Source: Desulfocapsa sulfexigens DSM 10523 (GTDB lineage: Bacteria; Desulfobacterota; Desulfobulbia; Desulfobulbales; Desulfocapsaceae). Taken from it: a DNA stretch of 32,000 bases. The DNA is taken from positions 1,920,001 to 1,952,000 of the forward strand of contig NC_020304.1 in the NCBI RefSeq assembly GCF_000341395.1, written 5' to 3'. Shown in pieces: positions 3,337 through 31,701 of this stretch (its first letter is position 1; every line of letters starts with the position of its first letter). Made by a program: the position numbers and the translations under genes. The notes beneath the pieces were generated by a model. The model saw only the letters and a list, made by a program, of their open reading frames with translations. It did not search any database and had not been told where the DNA came from.

Positions 3337-3900
3337 ATGTTTGCAGCTTCTGATTTACGTAAAGGGCTTAAAATTCAAATTGATGGTCAGCCATATATTA
3401 TCACCAATTTTGAATTCTCTAAACCAGGTAAGGGCCAGGCCCTGTATCGTTGCAAAATGCGCAACATGATAACAGGGAATCAATTCACCCAGACCTATCG
3501 CTCCAATGAGAAATTTGAAAAACCGGCTCTTGAAGAGCGTAACATGGAGTATCTGTATAATCAGGGTGATGAGTTTCACTTTATGGATACCGAGAATTAC
3601 GAGCAGACATTTATTACCAGAGAGCAGCTTGGTGAGAATGTTAATTTTCTGCAGGACAACATGAAGCTGGATGTTTTGTTTTTTGACAATAAACCAATTG
3701 GTGTCACACTTCCTATTTTTGTTAACCTTATGGTTACAGTGGCAGAACCCTGGGCAAAGGGTGATACTTCTGGAAATGATACCAAACCTGTGACTGTGGA
3801 GACCGGTTATAGCCTTCAGGTTCCGCCGTTTGTTGTTGAAGGTGACAAAATTCAGATTGACACCCGAACCGGGGCATATGTGACCCGAGTAAAAGAGTAA
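3337..3900 (+). CDS. efp: Translation elongation factor P
   Basis: 187 aa, starting 'MFAASDLRKGLKIQIDGQPYII', with the modified-lysine loop 'SKPGKGQA' and full-length EF-P architecture. Confidence 0.95.
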   Translation: MFAASDLRKGLKIQIDGQPYIITNFEFSKPGKGQALYRCKMRNMITGNQFTQTYRSNEKFEKPALEERNMEYLYNQGDEFHFMDTENYEQTFITREQLGENVNFLQDNMKLDVLFFDNKPIGVTLPIFVNLMVTVAEPWAKGDTSGNDTKPVTVETGYSLQVPPFVVEGDKIQIDTRTGAYVTRVKE

Positions 3901-3906
3901 TATTCA

Positions 3907-4797
3907 GTGCTTGATCAACAGAGGCTGCAACTTCGTGCAGCCTTTTTTCAGGCAATTCGCATTTTTTTTCAGGATCTGGGGTTTCTTGAAGTTGATACTC
4001 CTGTTCGCCAGCCACTTGTTATCCCGGAACAGAACATAGCTCATGTTCCTTCGGGAACGCATTTTCTGCAATCCTCCCCGGAATTATATATGAAGCGTTT
4101 GCTCGCTTCCGGTTGCGAACGGATCTTTCAGATTTGCCGTTGTTTCAGATATGGCGAACATGGCAGGCTGCATCTGGAAGAGTTTGTGATGCTGGAGTGG
4201 TATCGACTGGACGCAGATTACAATGATTTGATGTTGGATTGTGAGCAGTTGTTCCAGTTTTTAGGGACAGAGGTGGCGGGTTGCCATTTCCCTGTTTCTC
4301 TCGCTGGACAATGGGACCGTATCACGGTGGAGCAGGCATTCCAAAACTATTGCCCGGTTTCAGTAAATCAGGCGTTACAGGAGGATCGTTTTGATCTCCT
4401 GTTGGTGGAACATATTGAGCCCCATTTAGGGGGCAATATTCCCACCTTCCTTTATGATTATCCTCTTGAGCTAGCATCTCTTGCACGTCCTAAAGCAAGT
4501 CAGCCTGAAGTGGCTGAACGGTTTGAGCTGTACATGAGCGGAATCGAGTTGGCCAACGGCTTCTCCGAACTTACGGATTCTGTGCAGCAAAGAAGTCGTT
4601 TTGAAGAAGAATTTAACAAAATGGGTCTCCGTGACAGAGCACAGAGGAAAATGCCGGAATTCTTTCTGCGAGACCTGGAAAAGATAGATAGGGCAGCAGG
4701 GATTGCCATGGGGCTTGACAGACTATTTATGCTTCTTGCTGGTCAGGACAGTCTTGCTACTGCGGTTACATTCTCGCCGGATGAGCTTGATATGTAA
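3907..4797 (+). CDS. epmA: EF-P lysine-34 lysyltransferase (EpmA/PoxA/GenX, truncated LysRS paralog)
   Basis: GTG start 7 nt after efp. Class II aaRS-like motifs 'SPELYMKRLL', 'FRYGEHGRLHLEEFVMLEWY', 'ERFELYMSGIELANGFSEL' and 'GIAMGLDRL'. Confidence 0.85.
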   Translation: MLDQQRLQLRAAFFQAIRIFFQDLGFLEVDTPVRQPLVIPEQNIAHVPSGTHFLQSSPELYMKRLLASGCERIFQICRCFRYGEHGRLHLEEFVMLEWYRLDADYNDLMLDCEQLFQFLGTEVAGCHFPVSLAGQWDRITVEQAFQNYCPVSVNQALQEDRFDLLLVEHIEPHLGGNIPTFLYDYPLELASLARPKASQPEVAERFELYMSGIELANGFSELTDSVQQRSRFEEEFNKMGLRDRAQRKMPEFFLRDLEKIDRAAGIAMGLDRLFMLLAGQDSLATAVTFSPDELDM

Positions 4798-4820
4798 GAT
4801 GATTGTTGAATAGAATCCCT

Positions 4821-4850
4821 TTGACGTTGCACGGTTGATTGTGATAAAAT
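4821..4850 (+). promoter_or_regulatory. Possible sigma70-type promoter for the UGA-containing small ORF
   Basis: TTGACG at 4821-4826. 16-18 nt downstream is TGtGATAAAAT (4841-4850), which resembles an extended -10. Sequence pattern only. Confidence 0.3.
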
Positions 4851-4938
4851 TTCTCAAGTGAAGGATCGGTCTGTCAGGCCGAACCTGTTTTGTCTTTTTC
4901 ATAGGGAAAAGGACTTACTTTACATTTGGAGATGAACC

Positions 4939-5271
4939 ATGAACACAAAGGAACTGAAAAAGATCCTTGCTGGAATCGGTGTCGTTGGCCTGTTGGCTGG
5001 TGGCGGCATCGCTGTTCCGGGGAGTGCCGGGGCAAGCGGTTGAGGTGGCACCAAGCCCAGTGCAGTTGGCACTGAAGAAAAACCTGCCCCAGGCAGTGGT
5101 TGAGGCGGAACTAAAGACGGCGCAGTTAGCGTCGAAGAACATGTGGAAAATGCGGGAGAAGCTGCAGAAGCTGTAGAGGGTGCCGTAGAAGAGGTAACAC
5201 CCGAACCAGCAGGTAGTGGCTGAGGCGCAAGTAAACCCGACGCAGGTAGCGTCGAAGGTGTCAAGGAGTAG
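4939..5271 (+). CDS. Candidate secreted or membrane-anchored selenoprotein with three in-frame UGA (Sec) codons, 110 codons
   Basis: GGAG lies 7 nt upstream of ATG 4939. N-terminus 'MNTKELKKILAGIGVVGLLAGGGIAVPGSAGA' looks like a signal peptide. The frame is open to TAG 5269-5271 except TGA at 5041, 5101 and 5221. Each TGA sits in a repeated context: GSG-U-GGTKPSAVGTEE, GSG-U-GGTKDGAVSVEE, GSG-U-GASKPDAGSVEG. A hairpin follows each TGA and a strong terminator follows the ORF. Confidence 0.6.
5058..5074 (+). promoter_or_regulatory. Putative bacterial SECIS-like hairpin 1
   Basis: CAGUGC-AGUUG-GCACUG, a 6-bp stem with a 5-nt loop containing GU. Starts exactly 14 nt after UGA 5041-5043. Confidence 0.55.
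5118..5134 (+). promoter_or_regulatory. Putative bacterial SECIS-like hairpin 2
   Basis: CGGCGC-AGUUA-GCGUCG, a 6-bp stem with one G.U pair and a 5-nt loop. Starts exactly 14 nt after UGA 5101-5103. Confidence 0.55.
5238..5254 (+). promoter_or_regulatory. Putative bacterial SECIS-like hairpin 3
   Basis: CGACGC-AGGUA-GCGUCG, a 6-bp stem with a 5-nt loop. Starts exactly 14 nt after UGA 5221-5223. Confidence 0.55.
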
Positions 5272-5331
5272 GTACTCCCAAAAGAGCGACTGAAGTGCTT
5301 GGTATTTAGGTTTGGTCGCACCTGTTGATAT

Positions 5332-5372
5332 AAAAAAAGCCGATCATGATAGTTTTCATGGTCGGCTTTTTT
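5332..5372. terminator. Bidirectional rho-independent terminator between the convergent small ORF and ygiQ-like gene
   Basis: AAAAAAA-GCCGATCATGA-TAGTTT-TCATGGTCGGC-TTTTTT. The stem is 11 bp with one wobble. An A-run flanks it on one side and a T-run on the other. Confidence 0.8.
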
Positions 5373-5402
5373 GTTGTTTCCGGGAAACTCAGACGGATTG
5401 AG

Positions 5403-7205
5403 CTATTTTCGGCGCTTTACTGAGTGCTTATGTGGTCGTTGCTTTTTGTGGCCGCTATTTTTTGGGGAAGAATTTTTGGGAAGGAGGTGCTGCTCCAGGA
5501 TCCGCCGTTGTTTCATGCGTTCAGATTGCCCACGGGCAACAAAAATAGGTTTTTCTGTGTCACGATGAAGACCGGTTACATACATGGCTGTAGCCAGTGT
5601 CCCCGGAGTTGGGGTGAAGTCTTGAAATTGTCTCAGTTCCAGGCCAAGCTTTTGCAGCGTTTTGGCCATATTTGCAGTGTGCGATTCTTTGCATCCCGGA
5701 TGGGCCGAAATAATGTAGGGGCTGAAGTGGGCCTCTTTGTTAAGCTCACGGCTAAGAGTACGACCAAGTTCCAGGAATCTCACTAACTGTTCGCTGGATT
5801 CTTTGTGCATGATATCGAGAACTTCCTGCTCTGTGTGTTCCGGGGCGATTTTTAAAATACCCGGGGTGTGGGTACGGATGATCTCTTTAAACAGTTTTGG
5901 AGTCAGACAGAGGAGTTCCAGGCGTAGACCAGATGAAATAAAGACATTGCGAATCTCTGGCAGGGCTGCCACCTCTCGTAATACAGCAAGGAAGGCTTTT
6001 TCGTTCACCTCAAGATTTTTACAGACCTTTGGGTAGAGGCAGTCGTGCTTCTTACAGGAGCCGATTCGACAGGAAACGCCATAGAGGTTTGCGGTGGGGC
6101 CGCCTATGTCAGTGATGGTTCCTGCGAAATTTTTCATATTGCTGACAGCTTTAGCCTCACGAAGAAGAGACTCTTTGCTGCGACTGCTTATGGCAGGTCC
6201 CTGATGACGCGTGATAGCACAAAAAGAGCAGTTTCCGGAACATCCTCGAACTGCTGTGAGCGAGTGCTGGATCATTCTCGCTGCAGGAACATTCGGAAAG
6301 GCGGGGTGTTCACAGCGTGTATAAGGTAGCTCGTAAAGCTTATCCAGTTCCGGGGTGCTCAGTTGTGGCGGTTGTGGTTGCTGGATAATCCATGAGCTCT
6401 GCTGCCTTTGGATTAATTGTATGTCCCCATAGCTTCTTGCCTGGGCATCTATCGTTTTTTCAGCTCTGAGAAACAGGGCGTCATTTTGCTGAATCTCCTG
6501 CCAGGAAGGAAGGAAAATTCTCGACTTCTCGTCATGTTGGCGCTGCTGAAACACTTGGTCGCTGAGTCGTTCACAGGTTCCTGCAATAGATGAGAGATCA
6601 AGCCCCTTGTCCAGTCGCCTTGCAATCTCAAGAACTGCCTGTTCTCCCATGCCATAGACAAGCAAATCCGCCTTTGCATCACTGAGGAGCGATCCGCGGA
6701 GTTTCTTCTGTTTATAGTCGTAATGAATAAAACGACGCAGAGATGCTTCCACCCCACCAAGTATTACAGGAACATCTTTGTAGGCAGAACGGGCAAGATT
6801 GCTATACAGCATGGAGGCTCGATCCGGCCGTCGTCGTGAGGTCTTTTCTCTCTTTTTGTCAAACCAGGGATTGCCATCCGGGGAATAAGAATCTTTTTCC
6901 CGTACTTTGCCATTACCGGTGTAGTTGGCTACAACGGAATCGAGATTTCCCCCGGTAATACCAAAGAAAAGACGTGGTCTTCCAAACATTTTAAAATCGG
7001 TGTTGTCACTATATCGTGGCTGGGCAAGAATGGCCACGCGGTACCCCTTACTTTCCAGAAGTCTGCCAATGAGCGCAACTCCGAAAGAAGGATGGTCCAC
7101 ATACGCGTCTCCTGTGACGAGAACGATATCAAGTTCATGCCAGCCACGTGCGTCACATTCTTTTTTTGTGGCTGGTAAGGGTGAAATTGGGTCAGCTGGT
7201 TTCAT
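5403..7205 (-). CDS. ygiQ: YgiQ family (UPF0313) radical SAM protein
   Basis: N-terminal 'LDIVLVTGDAYVDHPSFGVALIGRLLE' and the CX3CX2C cluster motif 'GCSGNCSFCAI'. I chose the start at the Met of 'MKPADPI' (7205), which is preceded by GGAG. The ORF is open to 7244. Confidence 0.85.
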   Translation of the reverse strand: MKPADPISPLPATKKECDARGWHELDIVLVTGDAYVDHPSFGVALIGRLLESKGYRVAILAQPRYSDNTDFKMFGRPRLFFGITGGNLDSVVANYTGNGKVREKDSYSPDGNPWFDKKREKTSRRRPDRASMLYSNLARSAYKDVPVILGGVEASLRRFIHYDYKQKKLRGSLLSDAKADLLVYGMGEQAVLEIARRLDKGLDLSSIAGTCERLSDQVFQQRQHDEKSRIFLPSWQEIQQNDALFLRAEKTIDAQARSYGDIQLIQRQQSSWIIQQPQPPQLSTPELDKLYELPYTRCEHPAFPNVPAARMIQHSLTAVRGCSGNCSFCAITRHQGPAISSRSKESLLREAKAVSNMKNFAGTITDIGGPTANLYGVSCRIGSCKKHDCLYPKVCKNLEVNEKAFLAVLREVAALPEIRNVFISSGLRLELLCLTPKLFKEIIRTHTPGILKIAPEHTEQEVLDIMHKESSEQLVRFLELGRTLSRELNKEAHFSPYIISAHPGCKESHTANMAKTLQKLGLELRQFQDFTPTPGTLATAMYVTGLHRDTEKPIFVARGQSERMKQRRILEQHLLPKNSSPKNSGHKKQRPHKHSVKRRK

Positions 7206-7329
7206 AGTTGCTCCTATCTTAACTGTGCAAATAGCTTTGTGCAAACAGGATTATGATCCTTGCCTTGTTTCCTTGATCGGAACCCGTTAAACTGGTTCAC
7301 ATTAAAATTATTTTACCTACGAGGTGGCC

Positions 7330-9864: not shown

Positions 9865-10171
9865 CTTAGCACTCCTTTGTACCCGGATAGTCTACCATCA
9901 AAGCCGGTGGGTGACTGAAGCTAGATGGATTTCATCCCTTGCATTACCCTCTGCTCATGTTATCCCGAACAGAGTTACTTAGAAGAAAAAATGTATTGTG
10001 ATATTTTATAGTCGATATATTTGACGCTTCAAACTCTATTATGATACCATATCATATTATTGTTAGGTGAAAAAAAGACAGTCTTGATCTGTTTGTTTTT
10101 GACGATATGCTATTGTCATAGGGGTTACCTAATCACACATATATACCGTTTTAGAGATTTTATGGATATAA

Positions 10172-12340
10172 ATGACTGAACAGGAAAAATCGAATAATCC
10201 AGAAGAATGGCATATCATAGATGATAGTGACAACCAGGATGATCCCCTTCTTGACTGCCTTGAAATTCTGGCCAAAATATATGACCGTCCTATCTCCAGA
10301 ACGGTATTGCGTGCTGGATTGCCCCTTGTCCATAATCGGTTGACGGTCGAACTTGTTTCACGGGCCACACGTCGAGCCGGTCTTTCCTCACGACTTCTCA
10401 AACGTCCTCTTGATCAGTTTAACACGCATGAATTACCCGCTATAGTGTTGCTGGATAATCGACGTGCCTGTGTAGTAATTAAAGCAGATTCAAGCGATGG
10501 CACTCTGGAAGTAATATGGCCGGAAAGTCAGGGGAGCCAGATTGTGTCCTGTGAAGAACTGGCTGACACATATACGGGATATTCAATTTTTGTCAAACCC
10601 AAATATCGTATTGACGATCGGGGAGTGAGTCATCCAAGGGATCGATCAAAAAACTGGTTCTGGGGGACTGTGCTGACTTCATGGCGGATTTACAGAGATG
10701 TCATTATCGCCTCCTTTCTGATTAATATTTTCGCTCTTGCTACCCCGTTTTTCTTGATCAATGCCTATGATAGAATCATTCCCAATCTCGCTTTTGAAAC
10801 ACTGTGGGTTCTTTCCGCCGGAGTTGCAGCTATTTATTTCTTTGAACTTATCCTGCGAGGATTACGCGCTTATTTTATTGATATGGCAGGAAAAAAATCC
10901 AACCTTGTTTTGTCGTCAATTCTGATGGAAAAAGTGTTCGGTCTTCGTCTGGAGGCTCGCCCGAAGTCCATTGGTTCGTTTACCAAGCAACTTCAGCAGT
11001 TTGAAAGCATACGGGATTTTATTACATCCTTTTCCATTACCGCCCTGGTAGACCTTCCCTTTGCCTTTCTCGCACTCTTGGCTCTCTGGTATGTTGGTGG
11101 ACGTCTGGTGTTGGTTAGTGTCGTATGTATTGTACTTATTCTCATTTATGCATTTATTGTCCAGAGCCCTTTGAGAAAGTCCGTTGGGAAAACCCATAAT
11201 GCAGAGTCCCAAAAAAATGCCATACTCGTAGAGGGCCTGTCAGGCATTGAAACCATAAAAATTTTAGGGGCCGAAAGTAAGATCCAGCGTGCCTGGGAAG
11301 ATTCTGTGAGTTTTATAGCCACCTGGAGTGCACGTACCCGATTTCTCTCCGCGTCAGTCGGGCATGTCGCCCATTTCCTCCAGAATCTCTCTCTCGTTGC
11401 GATTATTATCTTCAGTGTCTATATGATCTCTTGGGGGGAAATGACCGGTGGAGGCCTTTTTGCCTGTATATTTCTCACTCGGCGTGCAACCTCGCCAATG
11501 ACACAGGTCGTGAGTCTGATGACTCGTTTTCATCAAGCACGAAATTCTCTTCAGACTCTGAATAAAATAATGGAACTTCCGTCTGAGCGTCCTACAGAAA
11601 AAGTATTTTTACACCGGACGAGTTTCAACGGTGCCTTAACCCTCGAGAACCTTTCTTTTACCTATCCCGGCGACTCAACGGAAGTGCTGAGAAATATTAA
11701 TTTGCAGATCAACCCTGGCGAGAAAGTAGGCATTATCGGCCCTATTGGTTCCGGCAAGACAACCCTTGGCAAACTCATTCTTGGACTCTATGAACCAAGC
11801 AAAGGAATGGTTGCAATGGATGGTACCGATATCCGACAGATTGATCCAGCAGAACTGCGGAATTTTATCGGCTATGTCTCGCAGGATGTAGTCCTTTTTA
11901 AGGGGAGTGTGCGTGATAATATCGTTCTCGGGACCAGCGATATTGATGACTCAACGGTCCTGCGTGCTGCCAAGATAGCTGGTGTGAGCAACTTTGTGGA
12001 AAAGAATCCGAAGGGTTATGATATGCCGGTGGAAGAGCAGGGGCGCAATCTTTCCGGCGGGCAAAGGCAAGCCATAGCTATAGCCAGAGCGATTCTTCTT
12101 GATCCCCCTGTTTTGCTCATGGATGAACCAACCAGCTCGATGGATAATAGAAGTGAATCAATGATACGGGATAATATGTTGGAGATTTTGCAGAATAAAA
12201 CGACAATCATTATAACGCATCGCATATCATTATTGGAAATCGTTGACAGAATTGTAGTGATCAGCAATGAAACAATTGTGGCTGATGGAACCAAGCAGCA
12301 TATTCTGGAGGCTCTGAAAAACGGCCAATTGTTGATATGA
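10172..12340 (+). CDS. Type I secretion system permease/ATPase (LapB/LssB-like ABC exporter with an N-terminal C39-like domain)
   Basis: 722 aa. N-terminal 'DPLLDCLEILAKIYDRPISRTVLRAGLPL' resembles a T1SS C39-like domain. A six-helix TMD follows. Walker A 'GPIGSGKTT', signature 'LSGGQRQ', Walker B 'LLMDEPTS'. Confidence 0.9.
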   Translation: MTEQEKSNNPEEWHIIDDSDNQDDPLLDCLEILAKIYDRPISRTVLRAGLPLVHNRLTVELVSRATRRAGLSSRLLKRPLDQFNTHELPAIVLLDNRRACVVIKADSSDGTLEVIWPESQGSQIVSCEELADTYTGYSIFVKPKYRIDDRGVSHPRDRSKNWFWGTVLTSWRIYRDVIIASFLINIFALATPFFLINAYDRIIPNLAFETLWVLSAGVAAIYFFELILRGLRAYFIDMAGKKSNLVLSSILMEKVFGLRLEARPKSIGSFTKQLQQFESIRDFITSFSITALVDLPFAFLALLALWYVGGRLVLVSVVCIVLILIYAFIVQSPLRKSVGKTHNAESQKNAILVEGLSGIETIKILGAESKIQRAWEDSVSFIATWSARTRFLSASVGHVAHFLQNLSLVAIIIFSVYMISWGEMTGGGLFACIFLTRRATSPMTQVVSLMTRFHQARNSLQTLNKIMELPSERPTEKVFLHRTSFNGALTLENLSFTYPGDSTEVLRNINLQINPGEKVGIIGPIGSGKTTLGKLILGLYEPSKGMVAMDGTDIRQIDPAELRNFIGYVSQDVVLFKGSVRDNIVLGTSDIDDSTVLRAAKIAGVSNFVEKNPKGYDMPVEEQGRNLSGGQRQAIAIARAILLDPPVLLMDEPTSSMDNRSESMIRDNMLEILQNKTTIIITHRISLLEIVDRIVVISNETIVADGTKQHILEALKNGQLLI

Positions 12341-13746
12341 AAGAAAATTCTGAGATCTCAAAAAATCTGAAGACTTCTCACGGCAGGACCCCTCGCTCGG
12401 TGGAAAAGCAGAAAAAAGGCTTCTTTTTTCAACAACAGAACTCCGATGTTGATTTAATAACCGACATCCGCATGTCGCTCCTGGCTCAGTCTCCACGAGG
12501 TGGCAGTATTATCCTCTGGATAATAGTCATCGTGTTTTTTTGTGCTGTGGCCTGGGCATATGTGGCGGAAGTAGAGGAGGTAACCAGAGCAAGCGGAAGA
12601 GTTGTGCCTGCAAGGCAACTGCAGATCGTACAGAATCTTGAGGGCGGAATTCTCTCCGAGATTCTGGTGAATGTCGGTGATGTGGTGAAACAAGGTCAGC
12701 TCTTACTCCGTATTGACGAAAAGCGTTTTTCCGGACCGTACCGGGAAAGTCGATTTAATTATCTTGCGCTCAAAGCCCAGGTTGCACGATTACAGTCCGA
12801 GACATACTCCACACCGTTTGTGCTCCCGGAGGAAGTGATGGCTGAAAATCCTGAGGTAGGTAACCGGGAAAAGGAGTTATTTGAGTCACGAAAAAAGGAA
12901 CTTGCCCAAACGCTAGGGGTGCTGGAGGAACAAAGTCGGCAACGTGAACAGGAAATCGTTGAACTTGAGGCTAAGATTGCTGAGCTGTCACGGACGCGCT
13001 ATCTGCTTAAAAAGGAAATTAACATGACCCAACCTTTGGTAAAAGGTGGGGCTGTTTCGGAGGTGGAATTCCTGCGCCTGCAGCGTCAGGACAGTGAGAT
13101 GCAGGGAGATATCATGGCTTCACAGCTCGCTCTTCCCAGAGCAAAGTCGAGACTTCTGGAGGCGCAGAAAGGAATAACTGAGGCAAAGCTCAGGTTCTCC
13201 AATAACGCCAAAAAGGAACTCAATGATGCCTATGCAAAACTTGAGGGACTTTCAGCTACCACCGTTGCCTTGGCCGATCGTCTGGACAGGACGGCTGTAG
13301 TCTCACCTGTCAGGGGAATAGTGAATCAAATTTTTATTAATACTGTTGGTGGTGTCATTCAACCGGGTATGAACTTGATTGAAATTGTTCCATTGGAGGA
13401 TACTCTTCTGGTGGAAGCGAAGATCAAACCCTCGGATATCGCCTTTCTTAGCCCTAACCTGAAGGCCACTGTAAAGTTCACAGCCTATGATTTTACACTG
13501 TATGGTGGACTCGAAGCGAAAGTTGAGCATATCAGTGCTGATAGTATCGTCGATAAACAGGGAAACAGCTACTATCTGGTAAATGTCCGCACAACAAAAA
13601 ATTATCTTGGAACTAAAAATGCCCCCTTACCTATTATTCCCGGAATGGTGGCCTCTGTTGATATTCTGACCGGAAAAAAACGCGTCCTTACCTATTTGAT
13701 GAGGCCAATTCTTCGTGCTCAGAGCTTAGCTCTACGTGAGAGGTGA
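12337..13746 (+). CDS. HlyD family type I secretion periplasmic adaptor (LapC-like)
   Basis: ATGA overlap with the ABC gene. Single N-terminal TM 'IILWIIVIVFFCAVAWAYV', a long coiled-coil middle, and the C-terminal 'VDILTGKKRVLTYLMRPI' typical of HlyD/TIGR01843-type proteins. Confidence 0.9.
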   Translation: MKENSEISKNLKTSHGRTPRSVEKQKKGFFFQQQNSDVDLITDIRMSLLAQSPRGGSIILWIIVIVFFCAVAWAYVAEVEEVTRASGRVVPARQLQIVQNLEGGILSEILVNVGDVVKQGQLLLRIDEKRFSGPYRESRFNYLALKAQVARLQSETYSTPFVLPEEVMAENPEVGNREKELFESRKKELAQTLGVLEEQSRQREQEIVELEAKIAELSRTRYLLKKEINMTQPLVKGGAVSEVEFLRLQRQDSEMQGDIMASQLALPRAKSRLLEAQKGITEAKLRFSNNAKKELNDAYAKLEGLSATTVALADRLDRTAVVSPVRGIVNQIFINTVGGVIQPGMNLIEIVPLEDTLLVEAKIKPSDIAFLSPNLKATVKFTAYDFTLYGGLEAKVEHISADSIVDKQGNSYYLVNVRTTKNYLGTKNAPLPIIPGMVASVDILTGKKRVLTYLMRPILRAQSLALRER

Positions 13747-26583: not shown

Positions 26584-28248
<1,665 letters not shown>

Positions 28249-28550
28249 GGCGTCCTCCCTTTGAAAGTGTAAAATTAAACTTCTTCTACTGGTTTAATTG
28301 TAAGTCATAAAAAAAGTAAAATCTATGGTACTTTGGTACAGTATTGATGTCTTTAGAATAAGTTCGTGCGAAATTGCATGTACATTTTGTGGACGCAGAG
28401 CAATGTTTGGCAGGGAGGTGAGAAAGGTTGAAGGGGACGAACATGTATCCGCTACTATCTACTTGGATTATTCCGGAGCTACTAAACCATGATATAGAAG
28501 ATCTCTATCACCCAAGAATTTAGAAAATATAGGGCGACAAATGAATTAAG

Positions 28551-28739
28551 ATGTCCATCGAAGTGGTCAGGAAAAGAGAGATCCTACCGGAATCCCAAGG
28601 GATCTTGTGCCATGACCACTGGAGGTCTTATTGCACTTTACATTACTCATGCAAAGTGCAATGCCCACTAACCTACGGAAGATGGATAAAGCTTGGTAGC
28701 AGGATGCCAACAGTAAGCACAGTTAAGCTCCAAAATTGA
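28551..28739 (+). pseudogene. Possible short remnant of an IS66-like transposase
   Basis: 'GILCHDHWRSYCTL' resembles the 'G.LV.D.W..Y' DDE-region block of IS66-family transposases. The ORF is only 62 aa with no flanking transposase sequence. It sits in a 612-nt non-coding gap. Confidence 0.25.
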
Positions 28740-28860
28740 TCAAGGAAATCAGTTCAATAAGGTTACCCATGAAGCTGGGCTGCTTGGAACTCGGTAGTGT
28801 GGAGGATTTCTGCATACGCCACCTGGACCTCTTTGAGAATCACAAAGGAAACCTGGCTAT

Positions 28861-30819
28861 TCAGTTCAGCTCGGTGGGGTTATCAAGGTAATATCCCTGA
28901 ATACCGTCGATATTGAGATCACACAATGCCTGATACTGCGCTTCTTCTTCTACCCCCTCGGCAATAACCAGGATATCAAGGCTATGAGCCACACCGGTCA
29001 ATGCACCAATGAAGAAATGATTGTTACTGTCTTCTTTGAGTTCATCAATGAAGGCTCGATCTATTTTGACATATCTGGGCTGTAGGGATTTTAAATACCC
29101 AAAATTGGCAAAACTCTGCCCAAAATGATCAAGGCCGACAAAGTGCCCTAATGCTTTTACCTCTTTTGCAAAATCCTGGAGAATATTCAGTTCTTGAGTC
29201 GCATTAAACTCAGCAAATTCAAAGATGATCCTCGGTGCTCCCGGAGGCATTTGTTTGAGGCTGGATAAAAGCCAGGCGGTAAACGATACATCTTTAAGGG
29301 AAGATGGAGAAATATTGACAGCAAGTTCATTGGAGTGCAACTTTCCACTATCAACAAGCATCGCTTTTTCAATGACGATTTTGTCGATAGAGGATATACA
29401 CCGTAGTCGTTCTGCCAGGGGGATGAAGATGCCGGCATTAAGCATTTGACCTGTCGGCAAGGGTATCCGCGCTAAAATTTCCCTATGCATAAGCTGTTTC
29501 AAGTTGCTGCTCATGACCACGGATTGGCTAAACAGAGTAATATCTTTATTGTCCAGGATCTGGTTCAGAAGAAGCTTCCATTCGTGCTCTCCACGTGGGG
29601 TAATGGCAGGTTCAGCGGAAAGTAATTCAACGATCCAGGTGTTTGGTCCCTGGTTTTGTGCTGCTCTCAAAATTTGATCGGCCTCGGAGAGCAGTTCCTT
29701 AAGGGATGTCACTTGTTCATAAATGACACCTCCTACATGTCCAACGTTTTCAGAGGACCCAACGTCTTCAATGGCCAAGCTGGCAAAGCCTCTGGTTATT
29801 GCTGCGGCTACATGACGTGCATCTTCCTCTGTAACATCCGGTAAAAAAACTGCAAAACTGCCTCCTGAAATATGTGCGAGTGCGGAATTTTTCAGCCCTC
29901 GTGTCGCTTCACGAATACAGTTCGCAACCTTCTGGAGGAGTTGGTTTCCGCGTAAATACCCTTTTTCCTGGTTGAGCTCCAGGAGATTATGAACCTGGAC
30001 AAGTAAAAATGCTCCCTTAATAGAAGCGGTATCACTCTTATCCATTCTAGCCGCCACCTGTCCCTGCAGGTAGCGCCTGTTGCCTAATCCGGTCAAAGCA
30101 TCACTATAGGCATTTTTCCTCAATCTGTTCGCCACCCGCGCCTGTTCATCGAACATCTTTTTCACTTTAGCGGTCATGCTATTCATCGCAACAACAACCC
30201 GTCGCAGTTCACGGGTTCTCGGGAGCTTCTCTTGGAATGTGTACTGTTTTTTGCAGAGGGCCTCTGCCTGCTGTTCAACCCGCCGTAAAGGCTTGAGCAG
30301 GGCTCGCAAGCCAAGGGCGCCCAGCACTATCACAATAACACCTGTAACGCCAAAAATTTTTGTCATATTACAGATGGCTTCCCAGAGTGTTTTATAGGCA
30401 TACCCCGGGTGACTTTCCACATAGAGACTGCCTCTCTGTGTCCATCCTGCAGTTAGCAGTGTACTGGCACCTGGAGTTTTTAAGGGGACAGCTCTTATAA
30501 ACCAGGCCGGAACATCGTTGATAATGACCTTAAGGGTTCTATCTATATGGACTGTATCATCCAGGTCAGTGAGCCGAATTGTACGATAATACCCACGATC
30601 AAAAACAACATTGATCATGGTTTCGATTGTAGCCATATCGTTCTCAGCAATATAGGGGGTGATCGATAATCCTAGAGAGGTTGCTGTATCCTGGGCATGG
30701 GATTCGAGCTGGTCTTCAAGAAAAGAACGTGTACCCTGGAGTTTGATGATCCATGTACAGGTGAAAAGAACAAAAAAGAGTACTAATGTAAATATGAGCA
30801 GTTGTCTGTAAAGTGTCAT
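28861..30819 (-). CDS. lapD: LapD-like inner-membrane c-di-GMP receptor (LapD_MoxY_N periplasmic domain, HAMP, degenerate GGDEF, EAL-like)
   Basis: The N-terminus 'LYRQLLIFTLVL...EDQLESHAQDTATSLGLSITPYI...GYYRTIRL...VPAWFIRAV' is collinear with P. fluorescens LapD as I remember it. 'PRTRELRRVVVAMNSM' marks the HAMP region. 'SGGSF' replaces GGDEF. The EAL region has 'EIL', 'DHFGQSF' and 'AEGVEEE'. Confidence 0.85.
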   Translation of the reverse strand: MTLYRQLLIFTLVLFFVLFTCTWIIKLQGTRSFLEDQLESHAQDTATSLGLSITPYIAENDMATIETMINVVFDRGYYRTIRLTDLDDTVHIDRTLKVIINDVPAWFIRAVPLKTPGASTLLTAGWTQRGSLYVESHPGYAYKTLWEAICNMTKIFGVTGVIVIVLGALGLRALLKPLRRVEQQAEALCKKQYTFQEKLPRTRELRRVVVAMNSMTAKVKKMFDEQARVANRLRKNAYSDALTGLGNRRYLQGQVAARMDKSDTASIKGAFLLVQVHNLLELNQEKGYLRGNQLLQKVANCIREATRGLKNSALAHISGGSFAVFLPDVTEEDARHVAAAITRGFASLAIEDVGSSENVGHVGGVIYEQVTSLKELLSEADQILRAAQNQGPNTWIVELLSAEPAITPRGEHEWKLLLNQILDNKDITLFSQSVVMSSNLKQLMHREILARIPLPTGQMLNAGIFIPLAERLRCISSIDKIVIEKAMLVDSGKLHSNELAVNISPSSLKDVSFTAWLLSSLKQMPPGAPRIIFEFAEFNATQELNILQDFAKEVKALGHFVGLDHFGQSFANFGYLKSLQPRYVKIDRAFIDELKEDSNNHFFIGALTGVAHSLDILVIAEGVEEEAQYQALCDLNIDGIQGYYLDNPTELN

Positions 30820-30834
30820 ACACCGAACCTCACG

Positions 30835-31701
30835 TTATTGTATACTGGCAGGCATTCTCTCAAGCAGGTCATTCCATAATTTGAGTCTGTCACTTTTTCC
30901 CACCAGGTCACCTCTGCCTCGCTCTTTTGCCAGCCACAGTCCAGCACCATTGAAACTGTATACAGGAAGCAGGTCTGATCTTTGTGTTGCTGGCTTAATG
31001 GCATTGATAAGATTATCGAGAACCAAAGGCACAGCAGTGGGTGTTTTATAATAGGTAAGCACCATATGACTTTGATTTAATTTCCAGGCCTTAACATACG
31101 TCAGGGTAAGTTTTTTCTCAGGAACCCCCAACATCTTCAGAGTAAAATATTTTGAAAGGGCAAAATCTTCGCAGTCGCCGCCATCACTTGCAAGAAACTC
31201 TACCGGAGTGGCCCAATAATCTTTTTTTGACCAATGTATTGCATCACTGACAAAATTGAGTTGATTAAAGAATCTGTTTACTTTTTCCAGCTTTTCAATA
31301 TCGGTACGACTCGTATCTTCACGGACAAACTGCTGCCAGGCCAGAAGTCTTTTTCTTGCATCAACACCATATTTATCCTCAGCAGTATCGAGTAAAGATG
31401 AATCAAGTGTGAAAATTTCGTTGGCTGAGGCAATCTGGCCTGCAAAAAAAAAGAGTAAGAACACAAATGCGAAGGGTAGTAGAGTGTTGTTGGCAAATTT
31501 GAGGACGGAGCTACTGCGGGAAAGGACTAGTTGAATAATTGTTAATGGTGCGTTAACGGAATTTAATACAATTGCGCCATATCGATTGCTGGATCGGCTC
31601 TGCAACAAACCGTTGCCATCAATCATGAGTAAATCCCTGAAGTATAACGGGATACAATAAATACGGTCCTCAAACTGGCCATCCATTGTATCCCGCTTCA
31701 A
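30835..31701 (-). CDS. lapG: LapG-like periplasmic transglutaminase-like cysteine protease (BTLCP, peptidase C93)
   Basis: 'DGGDCEDFALSKYFTLKMLGV' holds the catalytic Cys, 'QSHMVLTYY' the His and 'LVLDNL' the Asp. Signal-like 'LLPFAFVFLLFFFAGQIASA'. The start is uncertain: TTG 31701, ATG 31686 or ATG 31626. Confidence 0.85.
   Translation of the reverse strand: MKRDTMDGQFEDRIYCIPLYFRDLLMIDGNGLLQSRSSNRYGAIVLNSVNAPLTIIQLVLSRSSSVLKFANNTLLPFAFVFLLFFFAGQIASANEIFTLDSSLLDTAEDKYGVDARKRLLAWQQFVREDTSRTDIEKLEKVNRFFNQLNFVSDAIHWSKKDYWATPVEFLASDGGDCEDFALSKYFTLKMLGVPEKKLTLTYVKAWKLNQSHMVLTYYKTPTAVPLVLDNLINAIKPATQRSDLLPVYSFNGAGLWLAKERGRGDLVGKSDRLKLWNDLLERMPASIQ

Follow-up and report, generated by a model that had tools for sequence, protein, structure and literature searches.

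A short gene with three in-frame UGA codons

A 32,000-nt stretch of the Desulfocapsa sulfexigens DSM 10523 chromosome (NC_020304.1, positions 1,920,001 to 1,952,000; hereafter the window, whose first letter is position 1) was analyzed with the focus on a small gene of the sbtA family, located on the plus strand at 4939-5271. Its frame runs from the ATG at 4939 to the TAG at 5269, and the sole in-frame interruptions are the TGA codons at 5041, 5101 and 5221. Read through, with selenocysteine (Sec, U) at these codons, it yields a prepeptide of 110 amino acids with Sec at residues 35, 55 and 95 (MNTKELKKILAGIGVVGLLAGGGIAVPGSAGASG-U-GGTKPSAVGTEEKPAPGSG-U-GGTKDGAVSVEEHVENAGEAAEAVEGAVEEVTPEPAGSG-U-GASKPDAGSVEGVKE). 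In the sequence and in the alignment with relatives, UGA 1 (5041-5043, Sec35) lies in the context A-S-G-U-G-G, UGA 2 (5101-5103, Sec55) in G-S-G-U-G-G and UGA 3 (5221-5223, Sec95) in G-S-G-U-G-A. A Shine-Dalgarno motif, GGAG (4928-4931), is found 7 nt 5' of the ATG, and GGAGA is invariant in eight related loci. A previous description of this DNA, made from its letters alone (the sequence-only reading), had located the GGAG, the ATG, the three TGA codons and the TAG, all of which were verified; it had also placed Gly-Ser-Gly before each TGA, which holds for UGA 2 and 3 but not for UGA 1, preceded by Ala-Ser-Gly.

Residues 1-27 (4939-5019) constitute a conserved, signal-peptide-like leader that matched the NCBIfam model TIGR04081 over its entire length (1-27 of 27) with 47.1 bits, the curated cutoff being 30.5 (Sec written as Cys). 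Scores of 41-50 bits were obtained for all the relatives, whether or not they are linked to the gene for SbtM, the radical S-adenosylmethionine (SAM)/SPASM maturase of the family. Pfam PF27804 ('GSU1558_StbA-like') is precomputed on the identical gene; the Pfam scan of the read-through protein gave no match, PF27804 apparently being absent from the scanned library. The core holds three copies of the motif A/GSG-U-G, and the same motif occurs in all relatives. Judged by these matches, the gene belongs to the SbtA ('selenobiotic') family, made up of precursors of peptides that are synthesized by the ribosome and modified post-translationally (RiPPs), a family already described, and it is already named so in GenBank. 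The sequence-only reading had left the GSG-U-G repeat protein unrecognized, a statement overturned by TIGR04081, PF27804 and the GenBank name. The SbtA/SbtM family was reportedly defined bioinformatically by Haft and Basu in 2011.

The leader is strongly constrained. Among seven Desulfocapsa-type genes its codons showed 214 synonymous and 75 non-synonymous differences, and the motif KELKKxLAG is kept across the whole family; this conservation, under strong purifying selection, points to recognition of the leader by a partner. By inspection, an n-region (KELKK) and an h-region (ILAGIGVVGLLAGGGIAV) were distinguished, with a putative cleavage site at A-G-A↓S-G-U; the hydrophobic stretch runs on to the predicted A-G-A↓S site after residue 32 (nt 5034), and in the relatives where such a site can be recognized, a small-x-small site likewise precedes GSGU.

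The GenBank entry, AGF78279.1, is a protein of 34 amino acids that ends at the first UGA under the name 'radical SAM modification target peptide, selenobiotic family'; it lacks the 76 residues and the three Sec found past that codon in the read-through product. An exact look-up of the 110-residue protein, with Sec written as X, retrieved no entry from the protein collection. The public protein for this gene ends at residue 34, where the real product very probably has 110 residues and three Sec. Members of the SbtA family were found to be systematically mis-annotated in public databases: some stop at the first UGA, in many cases with the start spuriously extended upstream, and others are given Trp at the UGA codons. 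A 2022 review (PMC9312934) does not list the family in its table of prokaryotic selenoproteins, and the published D. sulfexigens genome paper makes no mention of selenium.

Selenocysteine decoding and the associated hairpins

A genome scan with the leader, complemented by contig look-ups, recovered 25 loci, 18 of which (17 plus L025) were translated past the first UGA. They came from Desulfocapsa, Desulfobulbaceae, Desulfuromonadales, Desulfuromusa, Desulfotignum and one metagenome-assembled genome (MAG) of Nitrospirota. Each of the 18 has two to five in-frame UGA codons, set in G-S-G-U-G/S. Most gene callers end the homologues at the first UGA; six database proteins, translated with UGA as Trp, carry GSGWG at the same positions and conserved sequence after each of them. 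The coding signal continues beyond the first UGA: in a codon alignment of the seven Desulfocapsa-type genes, the differences downstream of it at codon positions 1, 2 and 3 numbered 260, 358 and 619, respectively. Homologues thus run past the first UGA, a check that the sequence-only reading had proposed, together with the alignment of Cys codons to Sec sites. The latter was found in two loci. L024 (8647-8700) carries the Cys codon UGC in place of its third UGA, the 'fossil' hairpin 14 nt further downstream still being perfect, and L020 (10169-10240) has two Cys sites with decaying hairpins, of which 5/6 and 3/6 pairs are left.

In L019 (10109-10160), from a Desulfobulbaceae MAG that has no SbtM within 10 kb, two UGA codons are only 12 nt apart (G-A-S-G-U-S-S-S-U-S-G) and are apparently served by a single hairpin, which lies 26 nt from one and 14 nt from the other. 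The closest relative, L011 from a Desulfocapsa MAG, has a TAA (10103-10105) where all the others have the first UGA, and the rest is intact, including three further UGA units; this TAA is either a recent nonsense mutation or an error in the MAG consensus.

Every UGA of the D. sulfexigens gene is followed by a candidate selenocysteine insertion sequence (SECIS) hairpin. Hairpin 1 (CAGUGC/AGUUG/GCACUG) lies at 5058-5074, hairpin 2 (CGGCGC/AGUUA/GCGUCG) at 5118-5134 and hairpin 3 (CGACGC/AGGUA/GCGUCG) at 5238-5254, all on the plus strand. Each has a 6-bp stem and a 5-nt loop, starts exactly 14 nt past its UGA and is present in the minimum-free-energy fold; the apical loop contains G-U and begins 21 nt after the UGA. 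The spacing, stem length and loop size reported in the sequence-only reading were all confirmed. In the relatives, nearly every in-frame UGA has a stem of 5-8 bp that starts 12-15 nt downstream, usually 14, and the G-U-containing loops across the family include AGUUG, AGGUA, CGUGA, GGUC and GUC.

Across 30 units that share the 14/6/5 geometry, pairing holds in 99.4% of the cells, and compensatory changes were seen in five of the six pairs; cells with double changes numbered 46, compared with 15.4 +/- 3.6 in shuffled sets (0/500 shuffles). When the 3' partner was slid as a control, pairing was only 14-51%. Because these units had been picked for their geometry, a choice that favours pairing, a second covariance model was built from independent units, namely 12 units from distant SbtM-linked relatives only, with no window or Desulfocapsa sequence. 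This model picked exactly the three window units, with 42.8, 43.1 and 30.0 bits for hairpins 1, 2 and 3 (E 1e-7 to 6e-5), and its next best match reached 10.6 bits (window, both strands, 64 kb). The covariation of the hairpins and their conservation in relatives, the one claimed and the other set as a check by the sequence-only reading, are both borne out. No Rfam family matched the window at gathering thresholds, and a search of 4780-5400 at E <= 10 gave nothing beyond noise.

The hairpins are not a by-product of the peptide. In C-terminal units of relatives (...KKSG-U-SG-stop and ...GSG-U-GGHK-stop) the hairpin lies 3' of the stop codon, where peptide coding provides no explanation for it, and in L001 and L006 the same hairpin is found just 4 nt past a terminal UGA that serves as the stop. 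The dependence seems to run the other way: the stem codons pair with each other, D(GAC) with V(GUC) and S(AGU) with T(ACU), and the xA[VG][GS][VT] part of the 12-residue repeat is largely the hairpin read as protein. The repeat noted in the sequence-only reading after each Sec does exist, but mostly as a protein-level shadow of the SECIS. The locus illustrates the density that Sec encoding can reach in a bacterium, with three to five independent mini-SECIS in about 330 nt that shape the peptide sequence itself. Simple repeats were considered as an explanation and rejected.

These observations bear on two other ways of reading the frame. If translation terminated at the first UGA, the product would be the 34-residue peptide of AGF78279.1, at the point where most gene callers also cut the homologues, and the hairpins would be non-coding repeats or regulatory structures; given that members of different phyla keep the frame, the motif and the positions of the UGA codons, that codon-position bias persists downstream of the first UGA, that Cys codons substitute for UGA in relatives and that hairpin position is tied to each UGA, we consider this highly improbable. 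The reading of UGA as Trp or Gly would agree with the W that some database homologues carry at these sites, but nine of the 24 confident window genes terminate in TGA, at their normal family ends; TGA is thus an ordinary stop here, as the sequence-only reading had maintained, and a reassigned genetic code is excluded. Equally, a 133-residue open reading frame (ORF) spans 4920-5321 on the minus strand and might be taken for the true gene, but it has no family match, and all conservation follows the plus-strand frame. Both of these proposals are effectively refuted.

The core of the sequence-only reading, a small exported-looking peptide with three UGA-encoded Sec and a SECIS for each, is strongly supported by the homologues, the covariation and the Cys exchange. 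SelB-dependent insertion of Sec at residues 35, 55 and 95 in D. sulfexigens itself is predicted from these sequence comparisons. Family scans detected none of selA, selB, selC and selD within the 32-kb window, and a tRNA scan of the window did not find tRNA(Sec). The lineage of D. sulfexigens is Sec-rich, and a Desulfocapsaceae MAG with 56 selenoprotein genes ranks in the top ten of bacterial selenoproteomes by size (PMC13326102).

Flanking signals, a lost fourth unit and the neighbourhood

The spacer between epmA and sbtA contains a sigma-70-type promoter-like site on the plus strand at 4821-4850 (TTGACG, 18 nt, TAAAAT, with an upstream TG), which probably drives sbtA; its TTGAC and TGTGATAAnAT blocks are (nearly) invariant in eight Desulfocapsa-type loci. 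It is followed on the same strand by two conserved hairpins of the 5' untranslated region (UTR). The first (4866-4882) is part of the consensus structure of the eight loci and shows compensatory changes, for instance GC/AU at columns 74-85, and the second (4892-4914; GUCUUUUUC...GGGAAAAGGAC) has nine pairs, nearly all of them kept in the eight loci. The spacer segment 4821-4914, for which Rfam has no matching family, is possibly a regulatory leader. Downstream, the strong terminator that the sequence-only reading had noticed after the TAG at 5269 was located at 5333-5372, an intrinsic terminator with a 17-bp stem and a T-run, situated between the convergent sbtA and ygiQ genes and conserved in relatives.

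Alignment with the relatives also revealed a relic fourth Sec unit at 5281-5323 (plus strand). In all close relatives, including L011, it is intact; there this unit reads ...KKSG-U-SG-stop and has a GGUC-loop hairpin in the 3'UTR. In D. sulfexigens it has been severed by the TAG at 5269 and a 1-nt indel, which leave the TGA at 5291 out of frame, and the two loop-closing (top) stem pairs of its hairpin (5308-5323) are broken. Compared in this way, the D. sulfexigens peptide would have three Sec where that of its relatives has four, after the recent loss of one Sec. The severed unit with its damaged hairpin, as well as the TAA in place of the first UGA in L011, would be expected if sbtA were decaying into a pseudogene in this strain, as an orphan precursor eroding after the loss of its maturase. 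We judge this very improbable, as no damage is seen in the three UGA codons, their hairpins, the leader, the Shine-Dalgarno motif, the promoter or the terminator, and purifying selection acts on the Desulfocapsa-type class taken together.

Upstream of sbtA and on the same strand lie lon, a DUF3465 gene, azlCD, efp (3337-3900) and epmA (3907-4797). Downstream, a convergent gene for a YgiQ-family radical SAM protein (5403-7244, minus strand; TIGR03904, 666.7 bits), the only radical SAM neighbour of sbtA in the window, is followed by an nth/xth fusion and a LuxR-type response regulator. The block efp-epmA-sbtA...ygiQ-nth/xth-response regulator is conserved between the window and the Desulfocapsa-type loci, whose flanks were available for L001-L009, L011-L014 and L024 (the contig of L021 ends just past the leader). 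The ygiQ gene adjoins sbtA in most of these loci, other genes intervening in L006-L008 and L012, and it lies within about 4 kb of sbtA in every one with a downstream flank present.

A different arrangement was observed in six lineages (L016, L017, L018, L020, L022 and L023) and in L025, where SbtM is encoded directly downstream of sbtA; the SbtM proteins of the linked loci scored 575-739 bits with TIGR04082 (cutoff 350). The precursor of L025 has three Sec laid out as in the window gene, which makes the triple-Sec architecture ordinary for the SbtA family. An all-against-all comparison of the neighbouring ORFs in the SbtM-linked loci found no common family other than SbtM, and no YgiQ. Since YgiQ is missing from these loci, it is not a general partner of sbtA, and its proximity in the Desulfocapsa-type loci is read as synteny.

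Some other genes of these neighbourhoods are worth recording. In L016 a 'zinc ribbon-containing (seleno)protein DG' (12123-12650; NF049953, 225 bits) is encoded directly after SbtM, and an uncharacterized protein of 650-770 amino acids with no family match is common to the sbtA neighbourhoods of L016 (369-2678) and L019 (11318-13273). The window itself encodes an ABC transporter for type I secretion that carries a C39 peptidase domain, together with an HlyD adaptor (10172-13746). It also encodes a LapA-like protein with a retention module and homologues of LapD and LapG (26584-31701), which form a cyclic di-GMP-controlled adhesin system. Neither of these secretion-related modules is conserved beside sbtA in the other loci.

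Proposed pathway and comparison with known systems

We propose, with a probability of roughly 0.85, that the D. sulfexigens gene is an SbtA member encoding a three-Sec prepeptide by hairpin-directed decoding, which would be probably matured by an SbtM-type enzyme and exported to play a metal-binding or redox role. Transcription would begin at the gene's own conserved promoter and yield a structured 5'UTR, and translation would start at the ATG at 4939. At each UGA, SelB carrying Sec-tRNA(Sec) would be recruited by the hairpin 14 nt downstream, whose apical loop contains G-U and lies some 24-27 nt away from that codon, so that Sec would be inserted and termination avoided. The product is predicted to be the 110-residue prepeptide, composed of a leader (residues 1 to ~32) and a core that is acidic and of low complexity and contains the three G-S-G-Sec-G motifs.

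The later steps are proposed by analogy with the characterized members of the family. SbtM, a radical SAM/SPASM enzyme, has been shown to turn the Gly-Cys or Gly-Sec of an SbtA peptide into a thio(seleno)oxazole (PMC9204691, PMC11002830). Each Gly-Sec of the D. sulfexigens peptide would probably be oxidized to a 5-selenooxazole by an SbtM-type enzyme acting in trans, the leader may be cleaved at A-G-A↓S (32/33), and the peptide may be exported through the Sec translocon and act in the periplasm in a metal-binding or redox-active form. Leader cleavage, export, heterocycle formation and function are all suggested by this analogy. The periplasmic metal-binding or redox poly-selenol envisaged in the sequence-only reading is plausible as to its role, and the chemistry of the family points to 5-selenooxazoles rather than to free selenols.

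Several observations weigh against this proposal. Taken singly, the hairpins do not exceed shuffled sequence in stability (z = -0.6 to -1.6); their significance comes from their fixed position and covariation, and not from the stability of any one of them. SbtM (TIGR04082) was not found anywhere in the 32-kb window, nor within about 10 kb of sbtA in any Desulfocapsa-type locus whose flanks were inspected. Two SbtM searches gave more than 3000 matches each, and the D. sulfexigens chromosome (3,986,761 bp) is unrepresented among the best 120, which is not evidence of absence. Finally, the fourth Sec unit has been lost here and kept by the relatives, so some decay is under way.

Another explanation is close to that of the sequence-only reading: the same three-Sec peptide is not an SbtM substrate but is exported as an unmodified or differently modified poly-selenol, with a housekeeping role within the efp-epmA-ygiQ block of the Desulfocapsaceae. 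This would agree with the lack of SbtM in the window and in the inspected Desulfocapsa-type flanks, with the conserved synteny from efp-epmA-sbtA to ygiQ-nth/xth and the response regulator, and with the lack of a Desulfocapsa-labelled SbtM among the named matches (the best 120 of more than 3000 per search). We nevertheless regard it as rather unlikely: the KELKKxLAG leader is under strong selection, beyond what a plain signal peptide would need, which suggests recognition by a partner; the SbtM searches show only the best 120 of more than 3000 matches; and RiPP precursors are often encoded apart from their maturases.

A related possibility, put forward tentatively and thought doubtful, is that the Desulfocapsa-type genes constitute a distinct, vertically inherited subclass of SbtA-like poly-Sec peptides, uncoupled from SbtM and residing in the housekeeping block efp-epmA-sbtA...ygiQ with a promoter and 5'UTR of their own. 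The peptide would then be either an unmodified exported poly-selenol or the substrate of another enzyme, for which YgiQ would be the obvious candidate. The arrangement raises the question of whether precursors of selenooxazole peptides may exist in a lineage-wide, maturase-unlinked form.

Zhang and Gladyshev are said to have established the bSECIS consensus for hairpins that bind SelB. The D. sulfexigens gene resembles classical SelB/SECIS genes, such as fdhF of Escherichia coli, in having an in-frame UGA followed by a hairpin whose loop G-U lies within the accepted distance, and the 3'UTR hairpins of its relatives carry a GGUC loop, as the fdhF hairpin reportedly does. It differs from them in packing three independent units (up to five in relatives) into a gene of about 330 nt, and in its very short stems of 6 bp, which match no Rfam family even at E <= 10.

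A second comparison concerns the bufferins and captophorins, 5-thiooxazole copper-binding peptides made by MNIO enzymes (PMC11626156, PMC12668002); bufferins are periplasmic copper binders that carry Sec signal peptides (PMC11626156). The window peptide shares with them a signal-peptide-like N-terminus, repeated motifs of a small residue, Cys or Sec, and Gly, and, by analogy, the expected product chemistry, a 5-chalcogeno-oxazole. There is no sequence homology, however; the maturase of the SbtA family is a radical SAM/SPASM enzyme, whereas theirs is an MNIO with a DUF2063 partner, selenium takes the place of sulfur, and metal binding is an observed property of those peptides but only a possible one of the window peptide. 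The shared precursor layout and the expected chemistry make a periplasmic metal-binding role plausible.

The closest system is SbtA/SbtM itself (TIGR04081 and TIGR04082), whose maturase was characterized by the Bandarian laboratory (PMC9204691) and whose natural product is described as having "at least two SeCys", the motif being "GGUG" (PMC9204691, PMC11002830). The window leader scores above the cutoff of the family hidden Markov model, Sec is placed in a Gly-rich G-U-G motif with the SECIS directly downstream and several Sec per precursor, and the taxonomic range, the Desulfobacterota, is the same. The differences are that the window motif is GSGUG and the published one 'GGUG' (PMC9204691), that the D. 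sulfexigens gene lost its C-terminal fourth Sec unit, and that it has no adjoining SbtM and sits instead in the efp-epmA-sbtA...ygiQ block. With the SbtA family and its chemistry already described, what remains unusual is this maturase-unlinked arrangement in the Desulfocapsaceae.

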